Shown here piece by piece: positions 15,449-56,600 of a stretch of 64,000 bases of DNA. Source of the DNA: a virus. Location of the stretch: the IMG/VR virus record IMGVR_UViG_3300023499_000220, positions 113,645 through 177,644 of that record; one strand, written 5' to 3'. The stretch's first letter is position 1; each line of letters starts with the position of its first letter. The notes under the pieces were generated by a model, which ran no database searches, was not told the DNA's origin, and saw only the letters and a program-made list of their open reading frames with translations. The position numbers and the translations under genes are program-made.

Positions 15449-15724
15449 TTATCGAGCAAAGAAAGCAACGATGATTCGCATCAGAAAGGCTACAACGGCC
15501 AACTTCGTTGCAAGCCACATGAACCAATCGAGTTTGTCGATACCTTCGTCGAATACATTTGTTGCGGCAGCATCTTTTTTGTTACTGTCGCAATCCCCGT
15601 CAACATGGTTTTTTTTGATTTTGTTGCGATTAAGCACAAACAAAGTTCGAAACAAAGCCCATGTTGCAATACAGAATCCGTATACGATTAGAAGCTCGAT
15701 ACAGAAACTGTGCAAAGACGACAT
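15449..15724 (-). CDS. small two-TM membrane protein (91 aa)
   Basis: Two hydrophobic helices. First gene upstream of secY in the same orientation. Confidence 0.4.
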   Translation of the reverse strand: MSSLHSFCIELLIVYGFCIATWALFRTLFVLNRNKIKKNHVDGDCDSNKKDAAATNVFDEGIDKLDWFMWLATKLAVVAFLMRIIVAFFAR

Positions 15725-34913: not shown

Positions 34914-34929
34914 TCCTCCTCTTTTCTAT

Positions 34930-34958
34930 ATTATACCACATTTTGCCTTAATGGTCAA
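34930..34958 (-). promoter_or_regulatory. Family-B promoter copy 4 (TTGACC-17-TGGTATAAT)
   Basis: Plus-strand text attataccacattttgccttaatggtcaa. Confidence 0.55.
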
Positions 34959-35155: not shown

Positions 35156-35860
35156 TTAGCCTACTGCAGTTTCGTCAGCAGGGGCCTCGGACTCAGCAGC
35201 AGAATCAGCCTCGGCAGTATCCTCAGAGGAAGCCTCCTCAGTGGATTCGGCGGCATCGCCATCAGTCTCGGCGCTTTCAGCCTCGCTGTCGGAAGCCTCA
35301 CTGTCAGCAGCTTCAGATTCAGCAGTGCTCTCAGCCTCGGATGCAGCCGCTTCCTCAGCAGGCACGGAGGTAGCCACCAGCAGATTGCCCTCGGCATCAG
35401 CCTGACCACAGTTGTACAGATATGCGAACGCAGCACTCAGATTGTCGAACTTGGACAGGTCAGGAACCTCAACAGTAGAACCGTCATCAGCGGTCTTGGT
35501 ACCGTCGAAATGAACGCTGCCATCCTCGTCATAGCGAACGGTGACGGTATAGCCATCGCTTGCCAGAGCTTCAGTCATATAAGCGGCATAAGCGTTCATG
35601 GTGGTCTTCATCTGGTCCTCACTCAGAGAAACACCATCGGGCATCTCAGTCAGCTTGCTGTTGTCCAGAACCTCAACTGCGGACTCACTGGTCGCGCCGC
35701 TTGCACTGGCAGCATCATCCTTCTTGCCACAACCAACAAATGCAGTGCAGGCCATTGCCATAGCGAGACACAGCGCAGCACCCTTCTTTACAGAACTCTT
35801 GTTAACCTTCTGCATGAGTAACTTCTCCTTTTTCATGTGTGTTTGATGTGCATATTTCAA
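35156..35860 (-). CDS. acidic lipoprotein (234 aa; lipobox FVGC)
   Basis: Signal peptide with lipobox AFVGC. Asp/Glu/Ala/Ser-rich C-terminus. Preceded by a ~330-nt leader containing tandem palindromic repeats. Confidence 0.5.
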   Translation of the reverse strand: MKYAHQTHMKKEKLLMQKVNKSSVKKGAALCLAMAMACTAFVGCGKKDDAASASGATSESAVEVLDNSKLTEMPDGVSLSEDQMKTTMNAYAAYMTEALASDGYTVTVRYDEDGSVHFDGTKTADDGSTVEVPDLSKFDNLSAAFAYLYNCGQADAEGNLLVATSVPAEEAAASEAESTAESEAADSEASDSEAESAETDGDAAESTEEASSEDTAEADSAAESEAPADETAVG

Positions 35861-36284: not shown

Positions 36285-39200
36285 TTACTGCTTCTTTTCC
36301 TCGGTTTTATCCTCAGGCTTTTCAGCAGCTTTTTCTTCGCTATCGCCATTCTTCTTCTTGACGATGACAAATGCGCCAACACCAATCAGAGCAACAACAA
36401 CGATAACAGGAACGATAACTTCTGCGCCAAAACCAACGCCAGTCTTGTAGTTGACTACAACAGGTGCCGGAGTGGGAGCGGGTTCATTCTTGACTACAGG
36501 AGTCGGAGTCGGTCTGCTTTCTTCCGGAGGATTCTCCAGCTTAACACTTGCTACCCGAACATCACCGTAGTTGCCTGCCTTATCGACTGTACGGGTCACA
36601 ATGTAACCAGTCCAATCGGGGCTCAGCTTAAAGGTGACGTAACCGTTGTCCTTATCAATGTTTGTAACATTGACAGTCTCGAACTTGGTTTCGTCGAAGG
36701 TGTAATCGCCATCAGCACTCTTGGCAATAGCAGAACCATTGACCTTGTAATACTGAATCTTAGCGACACCGGAGTTGTACTCGCCATCCAGAGCGGAGAT
36801 AGCAGGAACGGAATCCTTGACCTTTACAACAGGCACGAAGTCGGGGTCTTCGGTATCATCCTTGCCACCGTTTTCGTCGGGAGTAGCAACGACATCGTTA
36901 CCGTTTTCATCACCGGTCTCGTCGCCGGTTGTGAAGAGAGCGGGCTTACCATGAGCAATACGAAGCGTAGTGGCTTCGGTCTTGTCATTGGTCGTTTCGG
37001 TCTTTTCGGACTCGGCGGGAACCTTCTCATCTGTACCGGATTCGGTTTTATCCTTCTTACCGGAATCTTCCTTCTTGTCGGTATCGTCCTTCTTATCGTC
37101 CTTCTTATCGTCGTCCTTTTCGGGAGCCTTGCCAGTCTCTTCACCAGTAATGAACACATTGATGGTGCTCTCGAACTTGACGAACTTCTCGTTCAGCAAA
37201 TCGGTCTTATTGGTGGAATCAACCTTATCGGCAGCGAAAGCAGAAGCAACGACAGGAGCTTCGGTATCAACAGATGTGGTGATAGTTCCCATCTCGGTAA
37301 TGGCACCGGTCTTCAGGTCAATCAGGTAATAGGTAGAAGTAACCTTCTCACTATTAGCGGAAATGACCATCTTCTCGGCCCACTCAGCATCGGTCAGGGA
37401 ATCGCTGGTTCCGATTGCGTAACCCTTAGGAGCGATAACTTCAACCTTAGAGTTGAAGTACAGGCCACTCAGGTCATCAGTCGTCTTCTTGGTAACCTCA
37501 ACAGGCTTACCGGTCTTTTCGTCAGCCACAGTACCAACGATAGTTGCGGGTTCTACATCGGCAAGATGCAGACGCTGAACTTCGAGGTCTCCGGTGGTAG
37601 GCAGGTAATTGTAGTTGTCGTAAGCGCCGCCAACATACTTGAAAGCGTCCTTCGTCAAACCAACATTACCGAAGATACCATCGATGCTGGAAGCAACAAT
37701 GAGTTCGAAGGAAGGCAGCTTAACGGTTTCAGCAGTCTCGTCGAAAGCGTAACCACTGGTCTTGATTTCGGGAATCTCCGTCTTAGTGCCATACAGCTTG
37801 ACGACGGGGTTCGGGTCGAGAGTAACCGTCAGGTCTTTACGAGCGATAACGAACTGACCATCGGCTTCGTTCTTATCGGCATCGACGACATTGATTGTTA
37901 CTGCGTAATTCTGCTCAACAGCAGCATCGTAATCAGAGGTAACGGTGTAGGTGTAAGTACCAGCGTTCTTGACGTTTTCAGTCTTGAACTGGCTGTCACT
38001 CTCCACGCCGTCATCGCCGCTTGCAATATCAGGAGTCAGAGTAGCCTTTGCATCAGCGGTCAAGGGAGCAGTCTGTGCATTGTCGGTGGTCTTGTCATTC
38101 TCGAAAGGAGTATAAACAAGCGCCATTTTCAGGCCCAGAGAATCAGGCTTGACAGCTGCACCGTGCGTACCATCGCCATTGGTGGCAACAGCATTTACGG
38201 TGAAGTCTGGGTTAGTGGTATCGCCATAGACGATATCCTTGGGCTCGGTGACAGTGACTTCGACCAGACGCTCGCCAATAGTATAAACGCCATTAACAAT
38301 CGTAATCAGGTAATCGTCATTGTCGTAAGAACCGACCATGTCGTATGCACCGTAATTCTTGACAGATTCGGGCACGCTCTCCGCAACCAGAGAAGCAGCA
38401 CCATCAGCAGACTTCATGGAAATCTCTTCGGCAACCGCATTCTCAACATCCTTCTGAGTGATGCTGATAATAGCTTTCAGGTCATCGCCATTTACGATGG
38501 TCTTCTTATCGGCATCGCCAGTATAGGTAAGAGTATTGCTCAGTTCAGCCATTTCATTGCCGTAGACAGAACCAACAGTGCCGATGGTCCAAGTCAGAGG
38601 ACGCTGAGTGACCGTGTAAGTGCCGTTCATAGCAGTTACCAGATAATCCTGATAAGAAGCCTGACCGACGCGGTGAGCCAGACCGGAGAAGGAAGGAACA
38701 ATGTCATAGCCTCCGACATGGCTTGCAGAAGTGACGAGGCACAGGTTCGTGCCTTCCAGAATATCACCATTGACCAGAGCTGCCTTGGCAGTGTCACCAG
38801 TGTATTCCAGAACGTTCACGGTACCGTAATCAGACCAATCTTCAACAGCAACATCGTCGCCATAGATAGAAGTCTGGGGTTTAGCGGTGACAGTGATGGG
38901 ACGCTTGTCGATAACAAAATCAACGGGAGCGTAAACAAAGGTGTAGTTGTTTGCTGCGGCATTCTCAACATTTGCAGGAACGACCTTGCCGGTACCAGCG
39001 TGAGAAGCTACCGTTGCGGGAGCTCCCTCAGCATCGGTGAAGTTGAAGGTCAGGTTTGCAATGCTCAGGACACCAGCATCATCAGGAGTGGTGTTGCCCT
39101 TGACGGGTTTCACAACGAATCCATCGAAAATCAGGTCGTCGCCGGAGAGAACAGGGTTCTCATCGCCGTAAATCTTGCTCTGGGGAGCCAGAGTAACATT

Positions 39201-42200
39201 CAGCGTAGCAGGAGTGATTTCAAAGGTGTTGTTTACGCGGGTGATATTGAAGTTGGCATCATCGCCCTCGATAATCATCGGGTGCTTGCCGACATCTTCA
39301 CCAGCATCGGTGCCAGCGTCAGGACGAACAACCTTCAGATTTGCAAGGTCGCCTGCATCCTCGCTCACATAGTAAGCGCCGTCGCCAGTTGCAGTCCAAG
39401 TCAGTGCGGGGTCAGCCTCACCGTAGACCTTCTTCTGGCCTTCGTCAACAACCACGATTACATCGCGCTTATCGACATGCAGAGAACCATCAACAAAGAC
39501 GATGGGGTCATAGTTCTTTGCGCCCTTGTTTTCCAGACCGCTCATGGTGATGACATAATCGCCAGCAGCAGGACGAGCAGGAATCTCGGACAGAGAACCG
39601 TCAGCATTCTTGATGTTGTAGACAACCGAGCCAGTGAATGCGGAAGCAACGGTGTCATTGTTCTTCAAGCCAGTAACGGTGTAGCTGAACGTGGGAACGG
39701 TGCCGCCATAAATCATGGAGTAACCGCCAGCCACAGTAAAGGTGACCTTAACGGGCTTGATGGTCAGAGTAGCAACTTCCATAGCTTCGGGCTCGGTGGT
39801 GGAAGAACCAACATCGACGGAAGTGCCGGAGCCAGTCACGATGGTGATGGCGTAGTTGCCGTACTTGTTGTACAGAGTGGAGCTGATGGGATATTCACCG
39901 ACATCCTCACCGGCTTTGCGAGTGACAGAGCCGCTCAGAGCACCAGTAGTCAGTTCCAGCGTATTCTTCTTCAGACCATCGTTGGAAATGTTGCCGGAAA
40001 TCTCGGTGTAAGAGAATGCGGGGTCTGCATCGCCGTAATCCTTCTCGTAGTTGGAGAAAGTCAGGGTGATGGGACGAGGAGTGATGGTGATGGTGGAGTC
40101 AATCACCGTCAGGTCGTAGTTGGCAGGCTGTGCGTAGATAGCTTTCAGAGCATAAGTGCCAACGCTTGCGGAAGCAGAAGTTGCACCGGAAGTCAGGGTA
40201 ATGCCCTTAAGAATCTTTTCGGCTTCTGCTGCCTGAACATCAGTAGTAGTCAGCAGACCAGTGCCGCCCTTGATGTAATCCTTCACGTTCATAGAAGTGA
40301 GGGTCTCACCATAGGTCTTTTCGGTTTCGAGCAGGTTGATAACGGCAGTACGCTTATTGATGGTAAAGCGAACATCATTGGTGAAGCTGATACGATAGTT
40401 CTTTGCCATCGTCTGCTCATAGATGTTACCGCTGTAAATCGGATAAGTGCCAGCGTTCTCGCCTGCTTCACGGCTCAGACGAGCCTGTGCGAAGTCGGCC
40501 TTGGGCTCTGCGAAGCTGGTGGTGTTGTAGTCGAAGATGACATAGGTATCGTTGACTGCAAAGCTGGGGTCAGTCTCGCCGTAAGTCTTGGACAGGCCAT
40601 AGCGAGGAGTGATGGTCAGGGGCATCTGATGAACAATCAGCATGTTCTTGCCATCGGGTTCAGACAGCTTAACGCTGTTTGCGGGCTGGTTATCCAGACG
40701 GAAGGTCAGGTTGTAAGAACCTGCATCGTACAGACCAGAAGCGTTCGCAGTAGCCTCAACGGCGATACGAACAACACCCAGAGAAACATCCTTGCCGTCC
40801 ATCTTGATATTGACGGTTTCGCCATCGTGGTAAATCTGAGTGCCATCGGAGGTATTTACGTTGACAGAAACTTCCTTGGCGATGGTGTCGGGCTTCTTCT
40901 CACCGTAAGTAGTCTGCAGTGCGTTGAAGGTGACAGAGACATCAGCCTCTGTGACTTGGAACGTAGCCTGCGGGGCAATCGTTACGATGTAGTTGGGGTT
41001 CTCATCATAAGAGATGGTAGCCTCATAGTTGCCGACAACCGTGGTGGGGTCTTCCCACTTGGTCAGGTCGATGTGGATGTTCAGCGGGCTGCCCTGCGGG
41101 TCAACCACATTGATAGCCTGAGAACCGGTCTCGTCATACAGCGCATAGCTGGGGGTGTTCTTACCGGCAACGCCGTACTTACGGACGCTGTTGGTAGTAC
41201 CCTTGATGGTGACAGGCAGTGCATTGATAGTCAGCGTACCGCTTGTACCATCGCTGTAAGTGCCGGTGTAAACGATGTTGTAGTTGGGGTTGGTGTAACC
41301 GGAAACAACAATAGGATAGGTACCAACACCAGTCAGCTTACCAACGGTATTGTCAACGCCATACTTGATGGTGACAGTGCCGCCCAGAGAAGCGACGGTA
41401 TCATGGATGCCAATTTCATCGTTGCTTGCGAAGTTCTTGTATTCCAGTGCGCCGGTAATGTCGGCATCGCTGGGATTCTCGGAACCATACAGACGCTCAC
41501 GATTCGGAACGGTGATGGTCAGAGTACGCTTGGTGATAGTGTACTTATCGGGAGCATTGAAGGTGATGTCGTAGTTCTTGGCGATTTCAGCAGTCTGGAA
41601 CTGTGCATCGCTGTAAGCGTAAGAGCCAACGGTCTCGCCAACCTCACGAGTCACAACGCAGCCAGCAAAATCGGAACCAACACGGCCACCCTTGCCATTG
41701 ACGGGGTCAAGAGTAAAGGCAACGCCGCCCTTGGCATCACTGTCGCCGTAAACCTTCGTCTGACCGCCCATCACATTGATGGCGATAGGACGCTTGGTGA
41801 CGGTCAGCTTGCTGTTGACAAAACGAACCAGATAGTTGTCGTAACGGTCATAGTTCTTGCCATCGGCATTGGGGTCCCAGTCAGAAGACCAACGCTCCTG
41901 AGAAGCACCCTGCACAGATGCGCTGACAGTGTATTCGCCAACATTGGCAGTTGTAGGAGTGCCGCTGTTGCCAGCCGCATCCACCATGGTAAAGCCAAGC
42001 TTATCCTCGGTCAAACCGATGCTTGCCTGTGTATCGTTCAGCTTGAAACCTTCGATGGATTTAATCTTGCCAGAACGAGCAGCACCATACATTGCGGACA
42101 GGTCATCGAGAGTGACAGTCAGCATTGCAGGATGGATGATGTACTTGCTGTTGATGACCTTGACGTCATAGTAAGCAGTGCATGCAGGGGGAACTTCGAC

Positions 42201-44303
42201 AGTCATCGGATATTCGCCAACATTCTTATTGTCGATATCCTGACGCTGTGTTGTCAGAACCATGCTGACCAGTTTGTTCACACCGTCATCAGCGGTGATG
42301 TCAGAACCAGCGACAATACGCTTATCGGAGGCCACTGCCTGAGCAGCACCGTTATAAGCAACAGCGTCGAAGGTGATGGTGGAAGACTTGCCCTTTTCAG
42401 CCTCACCATAGATGGCATCAATCTGGTCGTTGGTGATGGTTACGTTACGCTTGGTAATTTCAAACGTTGCGGTAGCAAGGTTGATGTTATAGCCATTGAT
42501 AGGCGCATTCGTCTGGATATTGCCGATTGTAACAGTATAGCCACCGGGAGCAGAGGTGATGCTGGGCAGAACAACGGTGGGTTCACCGCTCAGACCAAGC
42601 ATCTCTTTCAGAGCAACTGCGTTGGACTTGTGTTCGTTGTTGGTCTTATACTCGAAATTCGTCTTATCGGTATCAGACCAGCCAGTAATCACGAAGTCAA
42701 CCTGAGGATTCTGCTGACCATACTGACGAGTGGCTTTGCTGCCGGTCGTCTGTACGCCATCATTGCCCTTGAAGACAAATACAGGAGTCAGGGTCAGAGT
42801 TTTTTCGGAAACGACAACATACACATCGCCGGTATTGGGCTGAATGTCGATGTTGTAGTTTGTGTTGCTCTTCGCGGAGGAACCTAAGATGATTTTGTAA
42901 GAACCGGTAGTGTCCTTATCAAAGTTCTCTGTGGTCAGAACATCCGCAGGAAGCAGGTCGCCGTCAACCAGACCACCATTGGTATCCATAACGGTGTAGT
43001 TAATCTGGCTGATGGTATTGCCCTTCGTAACATAGGTGGTATGAGGGACAATGTAAATCTGACGCTTGTTGATAGTCACACCCGTGTCATTGCGGATGTT
43101 TTTGGAAGAATCCAAGTTGGAACCATCAATGATGGTGTAATTCAGACCATTCACAGTAACGCTTGTGGCACCTGTATCAACATAAGTCGGATAAGTACCG
43201 GCATTGCAATGAATGTCTGTGGGATTCTGGCCGTCGCCGTCAGCCGGAGCATACATGATGAAGCTCAGACCGTCGATAGCTGCCTGAATATCCTTTTCGA
43301 CTTCCTGAGAAGTACGGGAATCAGCAGTGCTGTATTCGATGGTCAGACCCTTAGACTTGAAGGAGTCACCGTAGGTGTAGGTAACAGTCTGAGGCAGAAT
43401 GCGAATAACATTCTCCTGACCGCTAATCTTGGTATACTGAATACCAGTTCCTGCGGCAATCTGCTTACCAGTCTCAGCAGCGGTGATTGCCTGATAGTCC
43501 CCGATGACAGTCGTAGAACCGCCGCCATCAAACGCGCTGGCACCGCTGTTGTCTACAGGGTTTTCCTGACGGTCGCAAACCTGCAGATACAGGTCAGACA
43601 TGTCAAGGTATGCGTCCATGACGGGCTCGGCGACCTGCTCATCCTCGCTCAGAGAATAATACATGTCCTCAATGGGTTCCCAGTCATAAACTGCATCCAG
43701 TTCCTCAGTGCGACGCGTGACCATCGCATCAAGAACCGCGTTTTCCTTGTCAGCCTGCCATGCCTTGCTTGCAAGACCGAAGTTGTTTGCAGCAGTCAGA
43801 ATTTCATCTTTACGGCTTACAAGGGCGTTAGCCGCATCGATAAATGCCTGTGCTGCTTCACTGATGCTGCCAGTGGTAGAAGCTTCGCTGGAAGTGCTGG
43901 TGCTTGCACCAGTATCAGAGGCAGCACTGTTTGCGTAGGCAGTGGTCGTTTCAGACCCCGCCTGACTTGTAGCCTCAGAAGAAACATCGCTCGTCACAGA
44001 AGTGTCGCTGGACGCGGAACTTGCTGTGTCGGTAACATCGCTTTTCGGCGCGGGAGTAGTAGCGGAAGAGTCGGAGTTTGTTGTCGTAGTGCTGAGTGCA
44101 TCAGTTTCCTTCGGAGCTTCTTCACTCTGCGTGATTCCACTCGCGCTCTCCACTGCATAAGCAGTGACAGGAGCAAACTGAGACAGGCACATTGCTACGG
44201 CGACAATCGCACTCAAAAACCGCTTACGAGGTTTCTGCATGTTAGTTGCCCTCCTAATAATGTGAGTGTTCTGTGGTTTTACCACAGCCGGATTTATATA
44301 CAC
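36285..44303 (-). CDS. giant cell-surface adhesin with MBG-type repeats (2,672 aa; likely start MQKPRK at about 44240)
   Basis: Signal peptide. About 100 aa Ser/Thr-rich segment. Dozens of repeats of the KxYGxxDPxxTYxV...G...NYxI...GxLTIxKR type. KDD-rich spacer. Pro/Thr linker. C-terminal VVNYKTGVGFG plus TM segment plus KKK tail. Confidence 0.85.
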   Translation of the reverse strand: MYINPAVVKPQNTHIIRRATNMQKPRKRFLSAIVAVAMCLSQFAPVTAYAVESASGITQSEEAPKETDALSTTTTNSDSSATTPAPKSDVTDTASSASSDTSVTSDVSSEATSQAGSETTTAYANSAASDTGASTSTSSEASTTGSISEAAQAFIDAANALVSRKDEILTAANNFGLASKAWQADKENAVLDAMVTRRTEELDAVYDWEPIEDMYYSLSEDEQVAEPVMDAYLDMSDLYLQVCDRQENPVDNSGASAFDGGGSTTVIGDYQAITAAETGKQIAAGTGIQYTKISGQENVIRILPQTVTYTYGDSFKSKGLTIEYSTADSRTSQEVEKDIQAAIDGLSFIMYAPADGDGQNPTDIHCNAGTYPTYVDTGATSVTVNGLNYTIIDGSNLDSSKNIRNDTGVTINKRQIYIVPHTTYVTKGNTISQINYTVMDTNGGLVDGDLLPADVLTTENFDKDTTGSYKIILGSSAKSNTNYNIDIQPNTGDVYVVVSEKTLTLTPVFVFKGNDGVQTTGSKATRQYGQQNPQVDFVITGWSDTDKTNFEYKTNNEHKSNAVALKEMLGLSGEPTVVLPSITSAPGGYTVTIGNIQTNAPINGYNINLATATFEITKRNVTITNDQIDAIYGEAEKGKSSTITFDAVAYNGAAQAVASDKRIVAGSDITADDGVNKLVSMVLTTQRQDIDNKNVGEYPMTVEVPPACTAYYDVKVINSKYIIHPAMLTVTLDDLSAMYGAARSGKIKSIEGFKLNDTQASIGLTEDKLGFTMVDAAGNSGTPTTANVGEYTVSASVQGASQERWSSDWDPNADGKNYDRYDNYLVRFVNSKLTVTKRPIAINVMGGQTKVYGDSDAKGGVAFTLDPVNGKGGRVGSDFAGCVVTREVGETVGSYAYSDAQFQTAEIAKNYDITFNAPDKYTITKRTLTITVPNRERLYGSENPSDADITGALEYKNFASNDEIGIHDTVASLGGTVTIKYGVDNTVGKLTGVGTYPIVVSGYTNPNYNIVYTGTYSDGTSGTLTINALPVTIKGTTNSVRKYGVAGKNTPSYALYDETGSQAINVVDPQGSPLNIHIDLTKWEDPTTVVGNYEATISYDENPNYIVTIAPQATFQVTEADVSVTFNALQTTYGEKKPDTIAKEVSVNVNTSDGTQIYHDGETVNIKMDGKDVSLGVVRIAVEATANASGLYDAGSYNLTFRLDNQPANSVKLSEPDGKNMLIVHQMPLTITPRYGLSKTYGETDPSFAVNDTYVIFDYNTTSFAEPKADFAQARLSREAGENAGTYPIYSGNIYEQTMAKNYRISFTNDVRFTINKRTAVINLLETEKTYGETLTSMNVKDYIKGGTGLLTTTDVQAAEAEKILKGITLTSGATSASASVGTYALKAIYAQPANYDLTVIDSTITITPRPITLTFSNYEKDYGDADPAFSYTEISGNISNDGLKKNTLELTTGALSGSVTRKAGEDVGEYPISSTLYNKYGNYAITIVTGSGTSVDVGSSTTEPEAMEVATLTIKPVKVTFTVAGGYSMIYGGTVPTFSYTVTGLKNNDTVASAFTGSVVYNIKNADGSLSEIPARPAAGDYVITMSGLENKGAKNYDPIVFVDGSLHVDKRDVIVVVDEGQKKVYGEADPALTWTATGDGAYYVSEDAGDLANLKVVRPDAGTDAGEDVGKHPMIIEGDDANFNITRVNNTFEITPATLNVTLAPQSKIYGDENPVLSGDDLIFDGFVVKPVKGNTTPDDAGVLSIANLTFNFTDAEGAPATVASHAGTGKVVPANVENAAANNYTFVYAPVDFVIDKRPITVTAKPQTSIYGDDVAVEDWSDYGTVNVLEYTGDTAKAALVNGDILEGTNLCLVTSASHVGGYDIVPSFSGLAHRVGQASYQDYLVTAMNGTYTVTQRPLTWTIGTVGSVYGNEMAELSNTLTYTGDADKKTIVNGDDLKAIISITQKDVENAVAEEISMKSADGAASLVAESVPESVKNYGAYDMVGSYDNDDYLITIVNGVYTIGERLVEVTVTEPKDIVYGDTTNPDFTVNAVATNGDGTHGAAVKPDSLGLKMALVYTPFENDKTTDNAQTAPLTADAKATLTPDIASGDDGVESDSQFKTENVKNAGTYTYTVTSDYDAAVEQNYAVTINVVDADKNEADGQFVIARKDLTVTLDPNPVVKLYGTKTEIPEIKTSGYAFDETAETVKLPSFELIVASSIDGIFGNVGLTKDAFKYVGGAYDNYNYLPTTGDLEVQRLHLADVEPATIVGTVADEKTGKPVEVTKKTTDDLSGLYFNSKVEVIAPKGYAIGTSDSLTDAEWAEKMVISANSEKVTSTYYLIDLKTGAITEMGTITTSVDTEAPVVASAFAADKVDSTNKTDLLNEKFVKFESTINVFITGEETGKAPEKDDDKKDDKKDDTDKKEDSGKKDKTESGTDEKVPAESEKTETTNDKTEATTLRIAHGKPALFTTGDETGDENGNDVVATPDENGGKDDTEDPDFVPVVKVKDSVPAISALDGEYNSGVAKIQYYKVNGSAIAKSADGDYTFDETKFETVNVTNIDKDNGYVTFKLSPDWTGYIVTRTVDKAGNYGDVRVASVKLENPPEESRPTPTPVVKNEPAPTPAPVVVNYKTGVGFGAEVIVPVIVVVALIGVGAFVIVKKKNGDSEEKAAEKPEDKTEEKKQ

Positions 44304-44667: not shown

Positions 44668-47600
44668 TTATTCAGCGGAATCATCCTTATGGTTATCTTT
44701 GTTGTCGTTTTCGTCCTTCTTGCGCTTGTGGTTTACTACCACCAGAGCAGCGACGCCAATGCCAACCATTGCTACCAGACCAACAATGCTCTGTGCAAAT
44801 CCGATACCCGTCTTCTTGTTGCTCGTGAAGATAGAGAAGAGGGAGAAGGGTTTGCCGTCTACCTTGAAGATATCGAGCCAACCAATCGGCGGGGTCTTGG
44901 GCTTCTCAGTAGGAACAGGGGTCGGAGTAGGCTTCGGGTTGTCGGGAGTCGGAGTCGGTTTAGGCTCGTCAGGCGTTGTGGGAGTAGAGGGCTTCACAAC
45001 AGGGACTTTCACCTCGTTGGAAGGTTTCTCTACATCTTCATCAATCGGCTTGGACGGGTCCTTACCATGACCCGGATTCTCGGGGTCTTCGGGATTCTGA
45101 CCCGGAGCCTTAGCGACAGCCACGTTAATGACATCGTGTCCGGCATCCGCGTCAACGGCAACATAAGAATAGGTCAGAGTGAAGGATTCGCCAACAGGGA
45201 TACGAGCAATAGTGAACGTTGTCGTTGCGCTATTGTAAGTATATCCATCACCGTTCTGGGCTTCAATATGGCTTGCGCCGTCATTGTTGTCCTTTACGGT
45301 TACATTGACAAGGTCTACTTCACCGGTATTGGTTACTACCACACGATAATTGATGGTTTCACCGACATTGACTTTCGTCTTGTCAGCACTCTTCACAATC
45401 GTGAGGCTCTTTTCGAGCGGAATATCAGTTTCCGTACCGGAACCCGGAACTTCCACATCGACCTTGTTGGACGGAATATCCGTATCAGGGTCAATCGGTT
45501 TCGTCGGGTCTTTACCCTGTCCGGGATTCTCCGGGTCTTCGGGGTTCGTACCGGGAACATGAATCGTCGCTACGTTTTCAAGAATGTGCGTAGTCACATC
45601 GGCGATACCGACAGTATAAACGTAGTGGACAACCACATCGCCACCAGCAGGAATCGTGTCGATGGTGAATACACCATTCTCATAGTGATAACCAGCGCCA
45701 TCCACTGCGAAAATGCTTCCGGAGAAGTTATTCTCATCAGTCAGAGCAGCATTCTGAATATCGTGGTCTTTGCCATTGTGTACCGTTACGGTATAGGTGA
45801 CAGTCTCACCCGGCTTTGCGACAGTCTTGTTTGCAGACTTCCAGATGGTGACAACGCCATCATCAGGCTTCTTCACATCGACTGTATTGGACGGGATATT
45901 ATACTGCTCGCCATCGTGCGTGTACTTAATGGTTGCGGTATTTTCCATAACGCTCTCATCGGTCGTCTCTACCGTATAGGTATAAACGATATCAAGAGCC
46001 TCACCGGCATCCAGATAACCGATAGTCCAAGTACCGTCTCCGTTATAGGTATAGCGGTTAGAACTCTCAGCCGTAACATCACCCGCAAAGTTGTTATGGT
46101 CTGCGACAGTGATATCGTTTACGGTTTCGTCTGTCATATTCTTCACCGTAATGGTGTAGGTCACAACATCTGTCACCTTAGCGATATACTTATCGGCATC
46201 CTTTTCAACATCGATAGGCGGTGTCGGGTCTTTCACAACAGCAGCGTTCAGAACCTTAGGAGCATCAGCGGTAACTACCACATAGGTGAAGTTAAGCGTT
46301 ACGCTCTCGCCAGCCTTTACAGTGCTGATGGTATAGGAGTTGTCGCCGTTATCCGCAACGCCATCCATGGGCACAAAGTTGAGCGTTCCGTTGCCATCGA
46401 AGAAGTCTTCGACCACAACATTTTCTGCATCAGCCTTGCCCTTGTTGGCGACAGTAACCGTATAGTTGAGCGTATCGCCAACCTTGGCTTCTGCCTTATC
46501 AACGGACTTGGTGATTTCGATTACAGGAATCTCTGTTTCGGTTTCAGAGCCGGGAACTTCCACATCAACCTTGTTGGACGGAATCTCCGTATCGGGGTCA
46601 ATGGGCTTCTCGGGGTCTTTGCCGTGACCCGGATTATTCGGGTCTTCAGGATTCGTGCCGGGAACATGGATTGTTGCAATGTTTTCGAGAATCTGCGTGG
46701 GCACATCAGCAATTTCAACCGTATAGGTGTAGTGGATAACCACATCACCGCCTGCGGGAATCTTATTGATTGTGAATTCGCCGTTCTCGAAGGTGTAATC
46801 TGCACCGTCAACGCTTACGATTTCACCAGCAAAGTTGTTGGTATCTGTCAGACGAGCGTTTTCGATGTCGTGATTCTTTCCGTTATGAACCGTGACGGTA
46901 TAGGTTACAACCTCACCCGGCTCAGCCTTTGTCTTATCTGCAGCCTTGCGGATGGTAACAACACCATCATCGGGCTTCTCGACATCGACGGGGTTAGAGG
47001 GAATATTGTAATCTGTGCCATCCTTGCTGTAAGTCACATTTGCAATGTTTTCGATGACGGTGGCATCCTCAGCCTGCATCGTATAGGTGTAGGTGATATG
47101 GATGGTCTCGCCAGCGGCAATAGTCGGAATAGTCCATGTCTTATTGCCATTGTAAGTGTACTTGTCAGCGTTTTCGGCCTTGATTTCGCCCTTGAAGTTG
47201 TTAGTATCGGTGACGGTTACATTGTCAACAGGCTCAGAAGTGGTGTTCTTCACGGAAATCGTGTAGGTTACAACCTCATCTACCTTTGCAATGTGCTTGT
47301 CGGCTTCCTTCTCAACGTCAACAGGCGGTGTCGGGTCTTTGATTACTGCGGCGTTCAGTACGAGAGGTTCGTCTCCTTCAACTACAACATAGCTGAAACG
47401 AAGTTTTACGCTCTCCCCTGCCTTGACCGTAGAAATTGTGTAGGTGTTGTCTCCGTTATCTGTCACGCCATCCATGGCCTTGAAGTTCAGCGTTCCGTTT
47501 CCGTCAAAGAAATCCTTAATCAGGATATTCTCAGCATCCGCGTTACCGCCGTTCTTGACAGTGACGGTGTAGTTTAGCGTATCACCAATCTTGGCAGTAG

Positions 47601-50600
47601 GCTTATCTACAGACTTGGTAATAGAGATTTCCGGAATCTCTGTCTCAACTTCGGAACCGGGGACTTCCACTTCGACCTTATTGGACGGAATGTCCGTATC
47701 GGGGTCAATAGGTTTATCCGGGTCATTGCCGTGTCCGGGATTCTCAGGGTCTTCCGGATTCGTGCCGGGCACATGTGCCGTGGCAACATTTTCCAGAATG
47801 TGAGTGGGTACATCTGCAATCTGCACCGTGTAGGTGTAGGTCAGAACAGCGTCTGCACCAGCAGCAATCTTATCGATTACAAAGTGTCCGTCAACGAACT
47901 TGTAGCCGACACCATTTGTGCCGGTAATCGTTCCAGCAAAGTTGTTGGAATCGCTTACGACCACATTGGTGATGTCATGCGCCTTGCCGTTGTGAATCGT
48001 AACTGTGTAGGTCACGACCTCACCGGGTTCTGCAATCTTCTTGTCACCGCTCTTGACAATCGTAACTTCGCCATCCTTCGGGACAACGACTTCAACGGGG
48101 TCTGCCTTGATGACATACTCGCCGTCATCGGTCGTGTAGCGAACATCAGCTTCGTTGACCAGCGTAGAGGGGTCGGTAGTCTTCACCGTATAGGTGTAGA
48201 GAATATCGATGCTTTCACCAGCCTTGATGCTGGGGATAGTCCAAGTATGGTTGCCATTGTAGGTGTACTTGGCGTTGTCTTTAGAGGTGATTGCACCTGT
48301 AAAGTTGTTGGTATCGCTGACCAGCAGGTCGGTAACGGCCTTATCGGTCGTGTTCTTCACCGTGATGGTGTAGTTGACGACTTCGTCGACCATCGCTACA
48401 TGCTTGTCTGCGGTCTTCTCGATGTCAACAGGAGGAGTCGGGTCTTTCACAACAGCAGCGTTCAGGACCATCGGCGCATCTCCGGCAACGACCGTGTAAG
48501 TGAAGCGGAGCGTAATGCTCTGACCCTTCTCCACATTCGCAACCGTATAGGTGTAATCACCGTTATCCGTCACACCGTCCATCGGAACGAAGTTCAGGAC
48601 ACCGTTACCGTCAAAGAAATCCTTGACGACAGCGTTCTTGACTGCCTGTCCGCCAACATTCGTCAGCGTAATCGTGTAGTTCAGCGTATCGCCAACCTTG
48701 GCTTCCGTTTTGTCTACACTCTTAACGATTTCGAGCTTGCCTTCCGGCACATCAACATGCGTGCCGTCACCGGGAACCTCAACATCGACCTTGTTGGAAG
48801 GAATCTCCTCGTCAGGGTCGCCGGGGTTCTTGCCGGGGACATGAGCCGTTGCAACATTTTCAAGAATCTTGGTCGGAACATCGGCAATCTGGACTGTGTA
48901 GGTGTAGTGAACCACTGCGTCACCGCCAGCAGGAATCTTGTCAATGACAAATTCGCCGTTGATGAACTTGTAGCCAGCACCGTCAACGCCCTCAATCTTG
49001 CCTGCGAAGTTGTTCGCGTCAGTCAGACGGACATTCTTGATGTCGTAATCCTTACCGTTATGAATCGTAACCGTATAGGTAACGACCTCGTTCGGTTCAG
49101 CCTTGGTCTTGTCGGCAGTCTTAAAGATGGTAACGACACCATCGTTAGGCTTTTCGACTTCGACGGGGTTGGACGGAATATCGTAGTCAGTACCGTTGTA
49201 GCTATAACGCACATCGGCAGTGTTTTCAATGACAGTTTCATCGCTTGCCTGCATCGTATAGGTGTAGGTAATGTCGATGGACTTGCCGGATTCGAGCGTT
49301 GCGATGGTCCAAGTCTTATCACCGTTGTAGGTGTAGCCCTTGCCATCCTTGCCTTCGATTTCGCCCTTGAAGTTGTTCGTATCGCTTACCAGCAGGTTCG
49401 TCAGCGTGTCCTTGGAATTGTTCTTCACCGTGATGGTGTATGTAACAATCTCATTGACCTTGGCGATATGCTTGTCAGCGCTCTTCACAATATCCGTGGG
49501 CGGTTCGGGAGTTGTGATAACTGCCGCGTTCAGAACCTCAGGTGCGTCACCGTCAACCACCACATAGGTGAAGTTAAGCGTTACGCTCTCGCCAGCCTTG
49601 ACACTTGCAATCGTGTAAGTGTCATCACCGTTATCGGTGACGCCATCCATAGCCACGAAGTTCAGTGTGCCCTTGCCGTCGAAGAAGTCTTTGACTGTGA
49701 CATTCTCAGCATCGCCCTTGCCGTTGTTCTTGACAGTAATCGTGTAGTTCAGAGTATCACCGACAACGGCTTCATTTTTATCCACACTCTTTGTCAGAAC
49801 AAGGTCAGGAATCTTGGTTTCAGTCTCGGAACCCGGAACCTCAACATCGACAGGATTCGAAGGAATCTTCTCATCGTTATCGATAGGCTTGTTCGGGTCT
49901 TTACCGTGACCGGGGTTGTTCGGGTCTTCGGGGTTCGTTCCGGGAACATCAGCCGTAGCGATATTCTCCAGAATCTGAGTAGGCACATCACCAATTTCAA
50001 CCGTGTAGGTATAGGTCAGAGTGACCGAAGCGCCTGCGGCAATCTCAGCAATATGGAACTCACCGTTCTCGAAGGTGTAATCTGCGCCGTCAACGCCAGT
50101 GATTTCACCAGCGAAGTTATTAGCATCGGTTACTACAACATCGTGAACATCGAAGCCCTTGTTGTTGGTAACGGTGACATTGTAGGTGACGACCTCACCC
50201 GGCTTTGCCATCTTCTTGTCAGCTTCCTTGTGGATGGAGACAGTGCCCTTATCGGGTACGACCACATCGACAGTCGGCGTATCAAGTTTCACGGTATCGC
50301 CGTTCTCGGAATACGTCACATCAGCCTTGTTCTCGAGGAGCTTCTCATCATTGCTCTGTACCGTGTAGGTATAGGTAATGTCGATGGTCTCCCCTGCTCC
50401 GATTTCCGGAATCGTCCAAGTATTATCGCCGTTATAGGTGTACTTGTCTGTATTGGCGGCATTGATGCTGCCAACAAAGTTATTGGTATCCTTGACAGTG
50501 ACATTCGTCTTTGCCTTGGTATCGGGGTTATACACGCTGATGGTGTAAGTCACGATTTCATCGACAAATGCGAACTTCTTGTCAGCCGTCTTGGTGGGTT

Positions 50601-53600
50601 CGAGCGGCGGGTCAACGGGCGGTGTCGTGACGACAGCGGCGTTCAGGACCTCAGGCTCATCGCCTTCCACGATAACATAGGTGAAGCGGAGCTCCATGAA
50701 TGTACCGGCAGGCAGTTTGTTGATGGTGTAAGTGCCATCACCGTTCACTACAACACCGACAGCCGGGATGTAGTTGAGTTTACCGTGTCCATCGAAGAAG
50801 TCTTCGACCAGAATATTTTTCAGTTCGCCATCGCCAACATTAGACACCTTAACGGTGTAATGCAGCATATCGCCAACAGAAGCACTCTTCTTGTCTACGA
50901 ATTTCTCGACTTTCAACTTGCCCTCGGGCGGGTTGACAGGAACAGGTACATCACTGCCGGGAACCTTGACGGTGACCTCGTTAGAAGGCTTCGTCTTTTC
51001 ATTCTCAGGAGTCTGGTCTTCGTCAGCGAACCAGTAATGCAGCGTAGCCACATTCTTCAGCTCGTTGTAAGTATCCTGACCCTTACCGGCATCGGTGTTC
51101 AACACAATGTAATCATATTCTACCGTGACAGTCTTGCCAGCCGGAATAGTGCCGACCTTGATGACTGCGGAACCTGCAGATGCAGATTCCAGAGTACCGT
51201 TCTTGACATTCGTGATAACGCCGTTGAAGTTGTTCTTGTCGTGCAGCGCTGCATTCACATAGTCAACAGTGTCATTGTTGTGCATGACGACGGTGTAATG
51301 CACCGTATCGCCGATGTTTGCAATGGCCTTGTCTGCCTGTTTTACAACGGTGGGTCCGACATGTTCCGGCGTGGGAGTTTCGGGGATGACAGGGATATCA
51401 ACCTCATTGGAAGGAATCTTTACCTTGCCAGAATCCGTCACATATGTCATTTCGGCGTTATTGACAAGCATGGTATTGGGAGCATCTTCATTCATTACCG
51501 TGTAGGTGTAGACAATGTCTACGCTCTCACCAGCGCCGATAGAAGAAATATTCCAGACCTTATCGCCAATATAGCTTACAACATCAGTGTTTTCGGCAGG
51601 CGTGATAACGCCCGTGAAGTTGTTTGTATCCTTGACCTCAACATTCGTCTTGGTCTCGTTAGTCGTATTGGTAACGGTAATGGTGTAAGTCACCACTTCG
51701 CCAACCACTACGGTCTGTTTATCTGCCTTCTTCTCGATTTCGGGAACTTCCGGAATCTCAACAGCAGCATTGTTCACGACATCCTTGTCGCCTTCCTGTA
51801 CGGTATAGGTGACAGGAATCTCAACAACCTCACCAGCCGCAATTTCTGCGATGGTGAAGGAATGAGTCGCTGCGTCATAGGTGTACTTGTCAGAACTTGC
51901 AGCATTGATTTCGCCAATGCCGTCATTGAAGTCGCGCACAACTACATTCTGAGCAGTCATTGTGCCGTTGTTCGTAACGGTAATGGTGTAGTGAATGGTA
52001 TCGCCAATCATCACACTGGATTCAAGAGAAGTCTTCACAACGCGAATATCGCGGTCAGGCACTTCGCCTACATGGACAGTCTCAGTATCGGGGTCGCTCG
52101 TAACAGTCTTGTTGTCGGGGTTCTTGCCCTCAGCAACAGCCGTATTCACGATGTTACCGTTATCGAGGTTCATATCCTCTGCCACAGCAGTGTAGATATA
52201 AGTGATTTCAACGGATTCGCCTGCGTTCAACTCAGGAATCATCCACTTGCCGTTTCCGTCATACATCAAATCGCCAGTGTACTCGACAGTGCCGTTGCCG
52301 TTGGACGTATCGGTAACGATAACATTCGTCAGCTTGGTATTGCCGCTGTTCTTAACGGTCAGAGTATAGGTTACGGTCGTGTCATTGCCGTTCATATCAA
52401 CGAAGCTCTTGTCAGCGTTCTTTACGATGGTCAGTTCATCACGGAGCACATCAACCTCAACAGGCTTAGAAGGCTCTTCGATGTCCTTGTCACCCGGAAT
52501 CTCAGTATCGGGATTCTTGGGAGCGTGAGCAGTAGCTACGTTGATAATCGTTTCGGGGTCACCGTTCTGCACAATATACAGGTAATTCAGCGTAACGGAA
52601 TCGCCGACATTCAGAGCAGGAATGGTGAACAATCTGGTTTCGGGGTTATAGGTATATCCGTCGCCAGTAGAGACGATAAACATACCCAGAGCATTGGTGT
52701 TATCGGAGACGGTAACATTCGTCATATCGACAGTGCCGTCGTTCGTGACAGTGACCTGATACTTGACGACTTCGCCGGGATAAGCGTGGTCGCGGTCTGC
52801 AGACTTGACAATCGTCAGGTGCTTGTAGTACAGCGGCACGATTACTTCGTTGGAATCGACAGGTTTCTCAGGAATAGTCGGGTCTTCGCGAGCAGGAATC
52901 GTTGCGGTAGCAATGTTATCCAGCTTGCCGTTTGCGAGGTCATCTGCAACAACCGTGTACTTATAGGTGATGGTTACGGACTTACCAACGCCAAGGCTGG
53001 TGATTGTCCATGTTCCATCATCGTTGACACGATAGCCGAAGTGGAGCTTCGTGTTCTCGACAGGCTCGCCCATGAAGTTGTTCGTATCCTTTACGACAAC
53101 ATTTTCAAGCTTCGTGTTGCCCGTATTGGTGACTTTCAGCGTGTAAGTGACGACATCACCTACGCCAGCCTCAGTCTTATCAGCACTCTTTTCGATGGTC
53201 AGATTCTGACGGATGATTTCCACATCAACATCAGGAGTCTCGACCAACCAATCCTTGTTAGGCTCGGTATAGTTCGGAGTGGTGCTGCCATCAGGGTTCT
53301 CAGTATAGTTCTCGACTACCTTCATATCGGTAATCTTAGCGTTGTTTTCGAGGATATCGTTGTTGTTGGTGCCGTGGTCGGTCGGGTCTACCGTGTAGGT
53401 ATAGGTGAACGTTACGGCATTGGTATGGGTTTCATCGCGCAGATGGGAAATCTCTGCGATAACGAACTCGCCCTTCTCTGCATCATAGGTCACACCGTTT
53501 GCCTGAGACAGGACAGGAACACCAACGAAGTTGTTGGTATCTTTAACGATGACGTTGTGCAGGTCATGACTGGTCGCGTTCGTAACGGTAATCGTGTAGC

Positions 53601-56600
53601 GAATCACATCGTAATCCGTAGCGCGTTCACGGTCAGCAGATTTCTCGATAGAGACAATTTCCTTATCGCGAACGGTCAGAGTACCATCCACATACTTGAT
53701 GATGTAGTTGGCATTGCTGCCGCTGCCATCTTCGGTGTTGATGATAACTGCATCGCTGGAAACGTTCTTGCTGGAACCCACTTCGGTCTGAGAACCGGTT
53801 ACGGTCACAGAATCCATCTTATCGTGAATGCCAAGCAGGTCGTTATCTACGAGTTCCGGAGCGTAGGTATAGCCGGGTTCCGTCAACGGAGTGCCGTCAT
53901 ATACCTTTTCTGCGGAGTTTGCAGTAATGGTTACCTCACGCGGGTCAATGAAGAAATGTCCGGGAGTTACTGTGCCAATCTCAATATTATCCACCTCAGT
54001 ATAGGTAGGAACAATGGAATAGCCGGGGTTCTCGGTACGAACATTCTCACCCGGAACACGAGCTGCATCCAGATTCAGGGCACGGTCGATATAATCGCGC
54101 AGGTCCTTATCCGGAGTGTAAGGCTCATCCTTCTCGTTCGTGAGCGTATAGGAAACATTGAACTTATCGGGGTCGTTATCACCGTAGGTCTTGCGGTCGT
54201 CTTCTGCCTTGATGTTAATAATCAAGGGTTTGACGGTCAGCTTACCATCGATGTAAACGAAATCGTAGTTCGGGTTATGGAAAGTAGAATCCTTGGCAGA
54301 TACAGGGTATTCACCAACAGGGCTCCACTTCTCTGCATCAGTCTTGGTCTTGAGCGCATCTTTACCACCGATATCATCGATGGTGTCACCGCGCTTATAG
54401 CCGGTAATGGTTACGTTGGGTGTCGGGTTATCTTCGCCGAAATACTTTTCGTCGTCAATAACTGTAACAACGATGGTTGCAGGAACAATGGTCAGAGTTC
54501 CGGGAGTGGTAATGATTTCGTAGTTGCCGGACGGGTCAGTGCCATCAATGGTGATGGGATACTTGCCTACCTGCTCACCGTCATCAGTATCAGCGCCGGG
54601 ACGCTTTGTGGTGATATCGAAGAAGTCTTCGTCACCGGGATTGACCAGTTCTTCGGGGTCAGTAATCGTCCAAGTCAGCGGGTCGGGGTCTTTCTCTCCG
54701 TAAACCTTCTGCTGGTCATCTGCCTTCACATGGATAGGTTTCTTACCAATCGTCAGGTCACCGCCAACATAGATAAACTTGTAATTGCTGTTGTCAGCAA
54801 CCAACTGCTGTCTATCGTAGTTGATGGGATAATTACCAACTTTCGTCTTATTCGTTACGGGATTGCCAGCGTTATCGTTGCAGTACATTGTAGCAGTGCC
54901 GGAGACCTTGGATTCATCGTCCTTGATACCGGTACCGGTTTCGTCCTTAACGTCACGACCGACAAAACCTGTGATGGAATAAGTGAATTCGGGAATCTCA
55001 TCGCCGTAGGTGGTCTTGTATCCGCCATCGACCGTAACAGTGAGCGTTGCGGGGATGATTTTCAGAGAACCATCGTATACGGTAACGGCATAGTTCTTGT
55101 TGTTTGTATCGTACTTTGCGGAAATGAGGTAATCACCATCATAGAGGGTAGTTCCCCACTTATTGAGAGAATCTGCTGCAGTGACATCGCCGCGCACAAC
55201 ATTCTCACCCTTGGTGCGGTACAACTCAACATTCAGCGGGCTGTTTTCGGGGTCAATCAGGCCAATCACATTGCCAGCATTGTCTTCGTAATGGAAGGTA
55301 AATGCCGGGTCAGCGGTGCCGTAGGTCTTGACCTTATGGTCAATGCGAACAATCAGTTCCTTCGGGTTGACAGTGATATCGCCATTGACATAGCGGATAA
55401 CATAGTTCTTCTCGAAGTTTGTGTTGCTCTTGACTTCGAAAGTGGAGCCGATATGCTCTTCACCGTCTTCCAGAACAACGCAATCCGGGTTCACCGCATC
55501 CTCATTGTTGTTGCCAGCAGTTACGATGTACTTGCCAGCGTCAGACAGGTCGAAGCACAGAGTAGCGAAGCCAAGTTCACCGTTCAGAACGGTTTCCTTC
55601 GTGTCATCACGCTTGAAGCCGGTAATATCGGCATCAAATGCGGGATTCTCTTCGCCATAGGTCTTGGAATAGCCACCCTTTACGGTAACAACCAGCTCAG
55701 CCGGAGTAATCGTAAAGTTGCCATTCTCCATGGTAATAACGTAGTTGGTGATGCCATCCTTGCTGACAGGGCTGATATCGTTGGCGTTGATGGCGTAAGC
55801 CTTGCCGAACGAATGCTCGCCAGTCCAGACATCTTCACCGGGTTCACGAGTCACGCCAGTACCTTCGAGGTCGCCGGGCTGGACAGGCACATCCGCGCCT
55901 TCCTTCTCGGTGAGAACAGGGCCATTCGCGTACTCAATGTAGTAGTTGCCATCTTCGCCACGGACACCGTCATGGAGCGTGTACTTCAATTCGGGGTCAG
56001 CGTCGCCGTAAACCTTGGTGTTATCCGCAGCAATAACGGAAACGGGGCGAGGAATGATAGTCAGGTTGCCAGCGGTAATCGTGATGTCGTCATCATCATA
56101 GATGGTGCTGTGGACACCGGACAGGCTGATGCAATCCTTGTAAGTGCCGCTGGAACTGGTCTGCGTATCCAGATGGGTAAAGGTAAAGGAATTGGTGTTG
56201 ATACCGGCTTCCTCTGCCGTGATTTCAACAGCCTCGCCGTTTTCTACCTTAAACACATGATAGGTGTAATCGGTAGAACCATCGTAGAAGCGGTTGACAC
56301 GGTCGCCGTAATAGCGAACCTTATCATCAACGGTAATCATCAGACCCTGACGCTTGACAATGAGGTCGTTTGCGTAACGGTACTCAAAGTCGTAGTTCGG
56401 GTTATCCAGCTCAAGCTGTTTCTGGTCGTTTGCTGCGAGGTTTCCAATCTGACGGTCCTGCGGCGTGGAGTAGACGGGATAAGAACCGACTTCTTCACCC
56501 TCTGCACGAACCAGATTGAAGACGATGGGAACCTTATCGGGGTTCACAACAACGCTTGCATCCGTGATACGGCTGCCTGCGCCGAGCTTCTGCTGACCAT

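Follow-up and report, generated by a model that had tools for sequence, protein, structure and literature searches.

An Acidic Serine/Threonine-Rich Leader on a Giant Surface Protein of a Hodor-Type Megaplasmid: A Probable Spacer behind an Ordinary Signal Peptide

Does a serine- and threonine-dominated stretch behind the signal peptide of a giant surface protein tie that protein to an additional SecYEG channel encoded on the same replicon? The question is raised by a 64,000-nucleotide stretch of DNA (the window; IMG/VR record IMGVR_UViG_3300023499_000220, positions 113,645 to 177,644), whose minus strand encodes a surface protein of 2651 amino acids (aa) with MBG_2 repeats. Judged by gene content and order, the replicon is a conjugative megaplasmid of the 'Hodor' type from Bacillota of the human gut. 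A 2026 preprint (PMC12934698) already describes this giant protein with its MBG repeats, the SecYEG of the plasmid, and the relationship proposed between the two. A first-pass annotation had likened the stretch to the serine-rich repeat (SRR) regions of SRR proteins (SRRPs), the cargo of accessory Sec (aSec) systems. The stretch is real. What it probably forms, on the sequence comparisons given here, is an intrinsically disordered, net-acidic spacer (aa 30-126) that is nearly free of Lys and Arg, in which selection acts on length and physicochemistry and not on Ser/Thr, and which is neither an SRR module nor the tie between cargo and channel. Ahead of the spacer comes a Sec signal peptide that is ordinary in kind and unusually conserved, and behind it the first folded domain, which is helical.

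The Stretch behind the Signal Peptide

Where does the protein begin? The open reading frame (ORF) from which a 2,672-aa adhesin had been read is present (36285..44303, minus strand) and opens with GTG. A Shine-Dalgarno sequence (Table 1) precedes an ATG at 44240, the probable start codon; with this start the protein has 2651 aa, not 2672, and positions 44241-44303 of the interval first flagged fall outside the coding sequence, where they are probably untranslated 5' leader. After the signal peptide, MQKPRKRFLSAIVAVAMCLSQFAPVTAYA, the mature chain begins VESASG, in agreement with the N-terminus quoted in the first-pass annotation. The order along the protein is signal peptide, acidic S/T-rich linker, helical N-terminal domain, MBG_2 repeats (YGX-type, PF18676, E=1.8e-49; at least seven stretches), and sorting signal. 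The C-terminus reads ...VVNYKTGVGFG and continues with a hydrophobic segment and KKK, which together with the signal peptide is the architecture of a sortase-anchored protein.

The compositional bias stands far above expectation. The core of the stretch, aa 50-126, is 55% S+T (S 30%, T 25%), with Pro and Ala (16%) scattered through it, 12% D+E, and 1% K+R, which is a single basic residue. The best 97-aa window of the protein holds 48 Ser and Thr, against a mean of 28.8 and a maximum of 36 when the protein was shuffled 2000 times. An S+T content above 35% is confined to windows within aa 16-150, and no other S/T-rich stretch occurs in the protein. The entropy of the core lies in the lowest 2% of 40-aa windows, and order-promoting residues make up 6.5% of it, compared with 30% of the rest of the protein. 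From this composition we infer that the segment is intrinsically disordered. It is low in complexity and shows no repetition: Tandem Repeats Finder returned no tandem repeat in the DNA of the stretch, and Ser-Ser pairs at lag 2 in the core number 4, where 6.4 are expected, and give no period-2 signal. In Pfam and NCBIfam scans, no family model scored meaningfully on the N-terminus of the protein.

A further patch of low complexity, at aa 2364-2417 (36990-37151, minus strand), is unlike the first: K alternates there with D/E (KDDDKKDDKKDDTDKKEDSGKKDK...). It separates the repeat body from the C-terminal domain.

What Is Conserved in the Leader?

Three lineages of the protein were compared: the window type, one that is 86% identical overall (L078), and one that is 62% identical (P0011). 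Relative to the window protein, the signal peptide is 97% identical in L078 and 86% in P0011, and the domain that follows the core is 92% and 62% identical; the S/T core falls to 36% and 21%. The first 20 mature residues are 80% identical in the sister variant P0007. The Nei-Gojobori dN/dS ratio against L078 is 0.50 for the core, a value that hangs on an uncertain alignment of low-complexity sequence, and 0.04-0.10 for the signal peptide and the folded parts (0.04 for aa 1-49). Near-identical variants differ at 9 of 77 linker positions and at 3 of 251 positions elsewhere. In the sister variant, the length of the core is kept (76 vs 79 aa) while its S+T fraction drops to 0.34, from 0.53, and Ala takes over as the most frequent residue.

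More distant orthologues (P0015, P0020, P0025, and P0142) have the same architecture and are 31-38% identical over the MBG part. The leaders of these orthologues are acidic, with a high content of G/A/P/E or of E/S/A; those of P0015 and P0142 have S+T fractions of 0.16-0.26, D+E of 0.25-0.27, and K+R of at most 0.04. Across the orthologues in which an automatic boundary heuristic worked (the linkers of P0020 and P0025 were judged by eye), the linker measures ~80-110 aa, with D+E at 0.15-0.30 and K+R at 0-0.04; S+T ranges from 0.16 to 0.48, with Ala, Pro, Gly, or Glu in place of Ser and Thr. Thus, the trait conserved among the aligned sequences is an acidic, base-free leader of low hydrophobicity and ~80-110 aa, and not its Ser/Thr content. 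Of 72 other MBG-repeat proteins in which a signal peptide was crudely recognised, only three have an S+T content of 40% or more near the N-terminus, so the bias is specific to this lineage and not a habit of the MBG domain family.

Might the leader instead be a tip exposed at the surface and selected for variation, for instance as an escape from host immunity or phage? No other segment of the protein varies as much as the leader, which would form the distal end of a C-terminally anchored molecule. However, its dN/dS of 0.50 is below 1, and its composition and length stay within narrow bounds. Low-complexity regions, moreover, commonly evolve fast without positive selection, and we regard a diversifying tip as very improbable.

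Among the other MBG-repeat homologues from a representative search, S+T reaches 50% or more near the N-terminus only in P0154 and P0102. Both have a long signal of the YKGHTGWKVKTR type followed by a long S/T/A-rich region, and look nearer to true SRRP-style N-termini, although no NCBIfam model confirmed this.

Comparison with Serine-Rich Repeat Proteins and Accessory Sec Systems

How far does the likeness to SRRPs go? An SRRP consists of a signal peptide of ~90 aa (range 55-101), an AST domain, SRR-1, a binding region, a much larger SRR-2, and an LPXTG anchor. The AST domain covers 30-40 aa after the signal peptide, is 30-50% Ala/Ser/Thr, and is needed for targeting to aSec. The SRR regions carry alternating serines (SxSx) in repeated motifs of 10-20 aa and are O-glycosylated on Ser/Thr inside the cell by GtfA/GtfB; export is by SecA2/SecY2 with Asp1-3(5), alongside co-located glycosyltransferases (PMC6973325).

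Similar to GspB, Fap1, SraP, PsrP, and the SRRP of L. reuteri, the window protein is a large wall-anchored adhesin with an S/T/A-rich stretch between signal peptide and first folded domain, and an additional SecY is encoded on the same replicon. Most of the defining features differ. The signal peptide is an ordinary one of 29 aa with no Gly in its h-region, the anchor is NYKTG and not LPXTG, and the protein shows neither an alternating-Ser repeat nor a second SRR. Known SRRP hosts are Lactobacillales or Staphylococcus, whereas the host group here is Clostridia-like gut Bacillota. SRRP signal peptides often carry a KxYKxGKxW motif. A direct check of the pattern K.YK.GK.W found no match in the first 150 aa of the protein; the absence of the motif rests on this check, because NCBIfam gave no KxYKxGKxW match even for two MBG proteins with a YKGHTGWKVKTR-type signal, and so failed as a positive control.

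The channel differs as well. Accessory systems have SecY2 with Asp4/5, whereas the plasmid has a SecY with its own SecE and SecG. This SecY reaches 329.8 bits on the canonical model TIGR00967 (cut-off 253.6) and stays below the cut-offs of the SecY2 models TIGR02920 (147.5 bits; 249.6) and NF009082 (146.7 bits; 353). The annotated genes nearest to it are housekeeping secY genes of Oscillospiraceae in an rplO-secY-adk-map operon (~42% identity), among them the spc operon secY of Vescimonas (42%), and a tblastn search with the protein found only housekeeping-type secY at no more than 45% identity, in mislabelled chromosome fragments. By these scores and relatives, the plasmid SecY is of canonical type and not SecY2.

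Are the other components of an aSec system encoded nearby? The first-pass annotation reported no SecA2, Asp1-3, or glycosyltransferase in the window, and Pfam/NCBIfam scans and precomputed Pfam tables agree with it. The 57 query sequences scanned (mostly window ORFs) yielded no domain of SecA, Asp, or a glycosyltransferase. Nor did the precomputed tables, which cover the window and extend 10 kb past its start, or those ORFs of 159 aa or longer that lie in the 7.3 kb upstream of the preceding giant gene. The flanking DNA, proposed earlier as the place to look for secA2, asp1-3, or gtfA/B-like genes, thus holds none within ~10 kb on either side. Precomputed tables list no SecA or glycosyltransferase at two related loci (L084 and L085). 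The back-translated SecA Walker-A sequence MxTGEGKTL, a single exact motif, had 53 matches in IMG/VR, and none of the six related contigs, which are up to 389 kb long, was among them.

According to the first-pass annotation, then, the S/T region would be a targeting module akin to SRR1 or the AST domain that directs the protein into the accessory SecYEG. On the SRRP analogy, such a role can draw on the extra SecYEG on the same replicon and strand, on the conserved synteny of cargo and SecY described below, and on the first 20 mature residues, whose 40% A+S+T falls within the AST range of 30-50% (PMC6973325), a composition that is non-specific by itself. Five SRRP features are lacking, however (long signal, alternating-Ser repeats, SRR-2, LPXTG, and a SecY2-type channel), as are SecA2, Asp, and Gtf in the DNA searched. 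The region is also the least conserved part of the N-terminus, and orthologues that are linked to SecY are not S/T-rich there. A targeting role of this kind seems to us hardly credible, and the analogy built on the stretch fails for signal peptide, repeats, SRR-2, anchor, and SecY alike. For Hodor elements it can be set aside, since their channel is of canonical type and the S/T bias is lineage-specific.

Could the Leader Be Glycosylated?

The main rival to a spacer is a mucin-like O-glycosylation module, comparable to the SRR regions of SRRPs or to clostridial Pro/Thr linkers, that would be modified by glycosyltransferases of the host or of plasmid DNA outside the window. Such a module would confer stiffness or protease resistance and have no part in the choice of channel, and it may coexist with the spacer reading. 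The core has a suitable composition, Ser and Thr with scattered Pro and Ala, of a kind that is rare among MBG proteins (the three of 72 above); the giant protein encoded upstream carries a T/P/E-rich linker; and the SRR regions of SRRPs are O-glycosylated on just these residues (PMC6973325). By contrast, no glycosyltransferase was found in the window, within ~10 kb on either side, or at the two related loci, and the main text of the Hodor preprint contains no word beginning 'glyco' or 'transferase' (PMC12934698). An 86%-identical lineage has an S+T fraction of only 0.33, and distant orthologues go down to 0.16, so the density of potential glycan acceptors is not conserved. Glycosylation is not needed to explain the data, and we consider it unlikely, though less so than the other alternatives.

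Returning to the spacer, linkers rich in S/T/A/E also follow the lipobox Cys of two lipoproteins of the surface module and the membrane anchor of its sortase, and the giant protein encoded upstream has a leader of this kind behind its signal peptide. Their position behind other export signals fits a generic tether role, and low-complexity linkers in other Gram-positive wall-anchored proteins, including lipoprotein tethers, have the same kind of architecture.

Several points weigh against the spacer. A single-sequence AlphaFold2 model of aa 1-420 assigns no secondary structure to aa 34-122, but its mean pLDDT of 34.9, with values of ~35 throughout, cannot separate disordered from folded parts, and the model is uninformative on disorder. 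The dN/dS comparison carries the alignment problem noted above. S/T richness is rare among MBG proteins and could reflect a lineage-specific use, such as O-glycosylation. That export uses the plasmid SecYEG and the SecA of the host is something we infer. Finally, the gene search covered the window and ~10 kb on either side, and ~270 kb of a plasmid of ~350 kb lies outside this range.

The Hodor Surface Module and the Link between Cargo and Channel

Exact or near-exact copies are present in many gut metagenome assemblies and in IMG/VR contigs of 89-389 kb. What kind of element carries them? Yuan et al. (bioRxiv 2026) described 'Hodor' conjugative megaplasmids of the human gut that were first mistaken for huge phages. 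Their backbone is conjugative, larger than 300 kb, and encodes Rep_3, ParA/ParB/ParM, and a type IV secretion system (T4SS). Their conserved surface module comprises hyp-SecY-SecG-SecE, a trigger factor, a class B sortase, and two giant proteins of 7309-7704 aa and ~2642 aa, both with signal peptides, MBG domains, and sorting signals; the authors proposed that both are exported through the plasmid Sec pore and anchored by sortases (PMC12934698).

The window agrees with this description. A hyp-SecY-SecG-SecE cluster with a trigger factor and a class B sortase lies at 11361-15724, all on the minus strand, and the two giant proteins come in the sizes expected (~7324 aa, then 2651 aa), each combining a signal peptide and MBG_2 with a sorting signal of the form NxKTG. 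A ParM-like gene is present, related contigs measure 240-389 kb, and the GC content is 46.6% (44.6-47.1% published). Of the backbone genes, the ParM/Alp-like one is in the window; Rep_3, ParA/B, and the T4SS lie outside its range. There is no essential difference from the preprint's description, which, and not the sequence of a named Hodor genome, was the basis of comparison. Since gene content, gene order, protein sizes, contig sizes, and GC content all match, the idea of a cargo-to-channel relationship is already published for this module. The main text of the preprint mentions no SecA, no glycosylation, no N-terminal low-complexity linker, and no disordered region (PMC12934698).

IMG/VR files the element as viral (UViG_3300029615_000411, 3300045988_179664, _181067, _183752, _183257, and _183547). 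The jumbo phage origin that this filing implies was rejected in favour of the megaplasmid reading of the preprint, according to which such genomes are conjugative megaplasmids that sometimes carry prophages (PMC12934698).

How close are cargo and channel? They had been described as neighbours. They are on the same strand, but in the window SecY lies 20.9 kb downstream of the cargo gene with ~25 ORFs in between, so adjacency is loose. The linkage is tighter in other lineages. The genes for the distant orthologues P0015 and P0142 are each 5-5.5 kb upstream of a SecY gene of their own, whose product is 45-48% identical to that of the window, followed by small SecG/SecE-like ORFs; between cargo and SecY lie orthologues of the window's lipoprotein and ParM-like protein. 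From cargo stop to SecY the distance is 5.5 kb in the L011 lineage, and compared with the 20.9 kb of the window, ~15 kb differs between the lineages (L009-L012; L011 4519-10000). In the window, the interval at ~15.7-36.2 kb carries flotillin, Dam methylase, DUF2325 protein, and ParM-like genes.

As far as gene order goes, the synteny of cargo and SecY is conserved, and its extension to much more distant relatives is an addition of this analysis. Orthologues with S+T fractions of 0.16-0.26 keep the linkage to SecY; thus, the linkage is conserved and the S/T richness is not. The cargo-to-channel relationship proposed in the first-pass annotation gains from the Sec genes that lie ~5 kb from the cargo in distant orthologues, and loses the S/T stretch as its basis. 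As first flagged, the stretch matters little, being by all appearances an ordinary low-complexity spacer.

Two contigs of more distant elements, L084 (SRR21392024) and L085 (ERZ1764608, 97.6 kb), carry the same core of an MBG giant, the lipoprotein, a ParM-like gene, SecY, and small SecG/SecE-like ORFs. In the stretches of them that were retrieved, neither a trigger-factor-like nor a sortase-like gene turned up. As most contigs with P0142 measure 50-200 kb, the module may not be confined to the two Hodor groups published.

Which Feature Might Mark the Cargo?

If any N-terminal feature marks the protein for the plasmid channel, the signal peptide is a better candidate than the S/T stretch, because it is more conserved than the mature protein even in distant orthologues (52-55% identity, compared with 31-38% for the MBG part). 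The lineages share the pattern K[KR]x[FL]LSAxxAxAMxx[ST]Qx[AS]Px[TA]AxA, and the signal peptide of the upstream giant protein is identical to that of the 2651-aa protein at 14 of 29 positions. This conservation can be followed at window 44154-44240 (minus strand), in P0011, P0015, P0020, P0025, and P0142, and at L020 7355-7447. In a stronger version, the conserved signal peptide and the acidic, base-free, possibly glycosylated leader would together act as a cargo tag for a SecA2-independent accessory Sec route on a mobile element. On that reading, to which we give little credence, the S/T stretch would be one lineage's version of such a leader and not an SRR.

If the leader is a spacer, how might the protein reach the surface? 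The signal peptide would direct it to a Sec channel, which is probably the canonical-type SecYEG of the plasmid itself, and export would be driven by the SecA of the host, as none was found on the plasmid. Sec export is hampered when basic residues come early in the mature region. An unfolded, acidic, base-free leader may thus provide an easily threaded start of the mature chain, and later, at the molecule's distal end, a flexible tip. The C-terminus, with NYKTG, hydrophobic segment, and KKK, would be processed by a plasmid sortase, probably the class-B-like one, with the cut presumably at T-G of NYKTG.

The sorting motifs of orthologues (QAPTGV, NYKTGV, QSQTGV, IPQTGI, and NSKTGV, with QAPTGVG in the sister lineage at L011 ~4390-4410) give the working motif x-x-[KQP]-T-G-[VI], which by its form is of class-B-sortase type rather than LPXTG. 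Like sortase B substrates, the window protein begins with a signal peptide and a hydrophilic, presumably disordered linker, continues with repeat domains and a Pro-rich segment that spans the wall, and closes with an x-x-[KQP]-T-G motif, a hydrophobic segment, and a basic tail; a sortase-B-like gene, probably the cognate one, lies nearby. It differs from them in its extreme size and in the position of the linker, which is at the distal N-terminus and not near the wall. The window sortase, named class B sortase in the preprint (PMC12934698), reaches 78 bits where the NCBIfam class-B cut-off is 153.75.

The 'trigger factor' of the module is treated as a chaperone in the preprint, where a lipoprotein signal is not noted (PMC12934698). 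In the window, this protein begins with a lipoprotein signal, MKKNAKEILAVISAACIALTAC, with the lipobox LTAC and then an S/T/A/E linker; the lipobox is kept in the sister lineage (L011, 11739-13109). The trigger-factor model is matched only from position 108, so the protein is without the ribosome-binding N-domain. It is more likely, from these features, to be an extracytoplasmic, membrane-tethered foldase with a PrsA-like role than a cytosolic one. The conserved signal peptide and this lipoprotein 'trigger factor' appear to be better handles on dedicated cargo of the plasmid channel than the S/T stretch.

Coordinates and Neighbouring Genes

Table 1. Features of the window that bear on the 2651-aa protein and its surface module.
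Feature	Position	Strand	Basis or remarks
Shine-Dalgarno AGGAGG	44250..44255	-	9 nt before ATG 44240; read from sequence
CDS, 2651-aa surface protein (probable start)	36285..44240	-	ORF, translation, PF18676, Shine-Dalgarno + ATG
Signal peptide, aa 1-29, MQKPRKRFLSAIVAVAMCLSQFAPVTAYA	44154..44240	-	Basic n-region, Gly-free h-region, AYA cleavage site
First 20 mature residues, aa 30-49, VESASGITQSEEAPKETDAL	44094..44153	-	Acidic; A+S+T 40%
Flagged S/T-rich low-complexity core, aa 50-126	43863..44093	-	S 30%, T 25%, A 16%
C-terminal sorting segment	36351..36452	-	NYKTG motif at 36438-36452
Upstream giant surface protein	44668..63996, running off window	-	6442 aa in window + ~882 upstream
Lipoprotein, lipobox FVGC	35156..35860	-	S/A/D/E-rich linker after Cys, acidic tail
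ParM/Alp-like gene	24210-25346	-	Domain scan
91-aa hydrophobic hypothetical protein	15449..15724	-	Upstream of secY; 'hyp' of published module (PMC12934698)
SecY, canonical type	14084..15424	-	PF00344 E=1.6e-86
SecG-like small membrane protein	13814..14068	-	Weak PF03840 and TIGR00810 matches below cut-off; SecG in PMC12934698
SecE, 83-aa gene call	13566..13817	-	PF00584; TIGR00964 30.1 bits (cut-off 27.55)
Trigger-factor-like FKBP protein	12344..13507	-	TIGR00115 171.5 bits (cut-off 180.2), model positions 108-368 only
Class-B-sortase-like transpeptidase	11361..12332	-	LSTC motif, N-terminal membrane anchor; TIGR03064 78 bits (cut-off 153.75)

The giant protein encoded upstream has ~7324 aa in total, with MBG_2 and 23 DUF11 stretches. 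Its N-terminus, taken from a near-identical contig, consists of the signal peptide MQKGKTWQRVASAVLAVMMTMSTFSSTIAYA and an acidic S/T/P/E linker of ~90 aa. It ends in NKKTGIGF (NKKTG at 44806-44820, minus strand), a hydrophobic segment, and a basic tail, and the sorting motif N-x-K-T-G-[VI]-G-F is common to both giant proteins. A terminator-like hairpin with a T-run (44654-44625, minus strand) follows the stop of the giant gene, and promoter-like sites (44585-44558 and 44413-44385, minus strand) precede the gene for the 2651-aa protein. Notwithstanding such sites, the four genes are reported to be co-transcribed (PMC12934698).

Downstream of the cargo gene, the other genes on the same strand encode membrane proteins, flotillin, Dam methylase, and the ParM/Alp-like protein. 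Megablast of window positions 24000-36000 against phage and plasmid collections gave no match. Orthologues of the lipoprotein adjoin the cargo at L084, L085, and L087 (tblastn, 45-57% identity), and in the ORF that encodes it in the window, an internal MQK may be the start.

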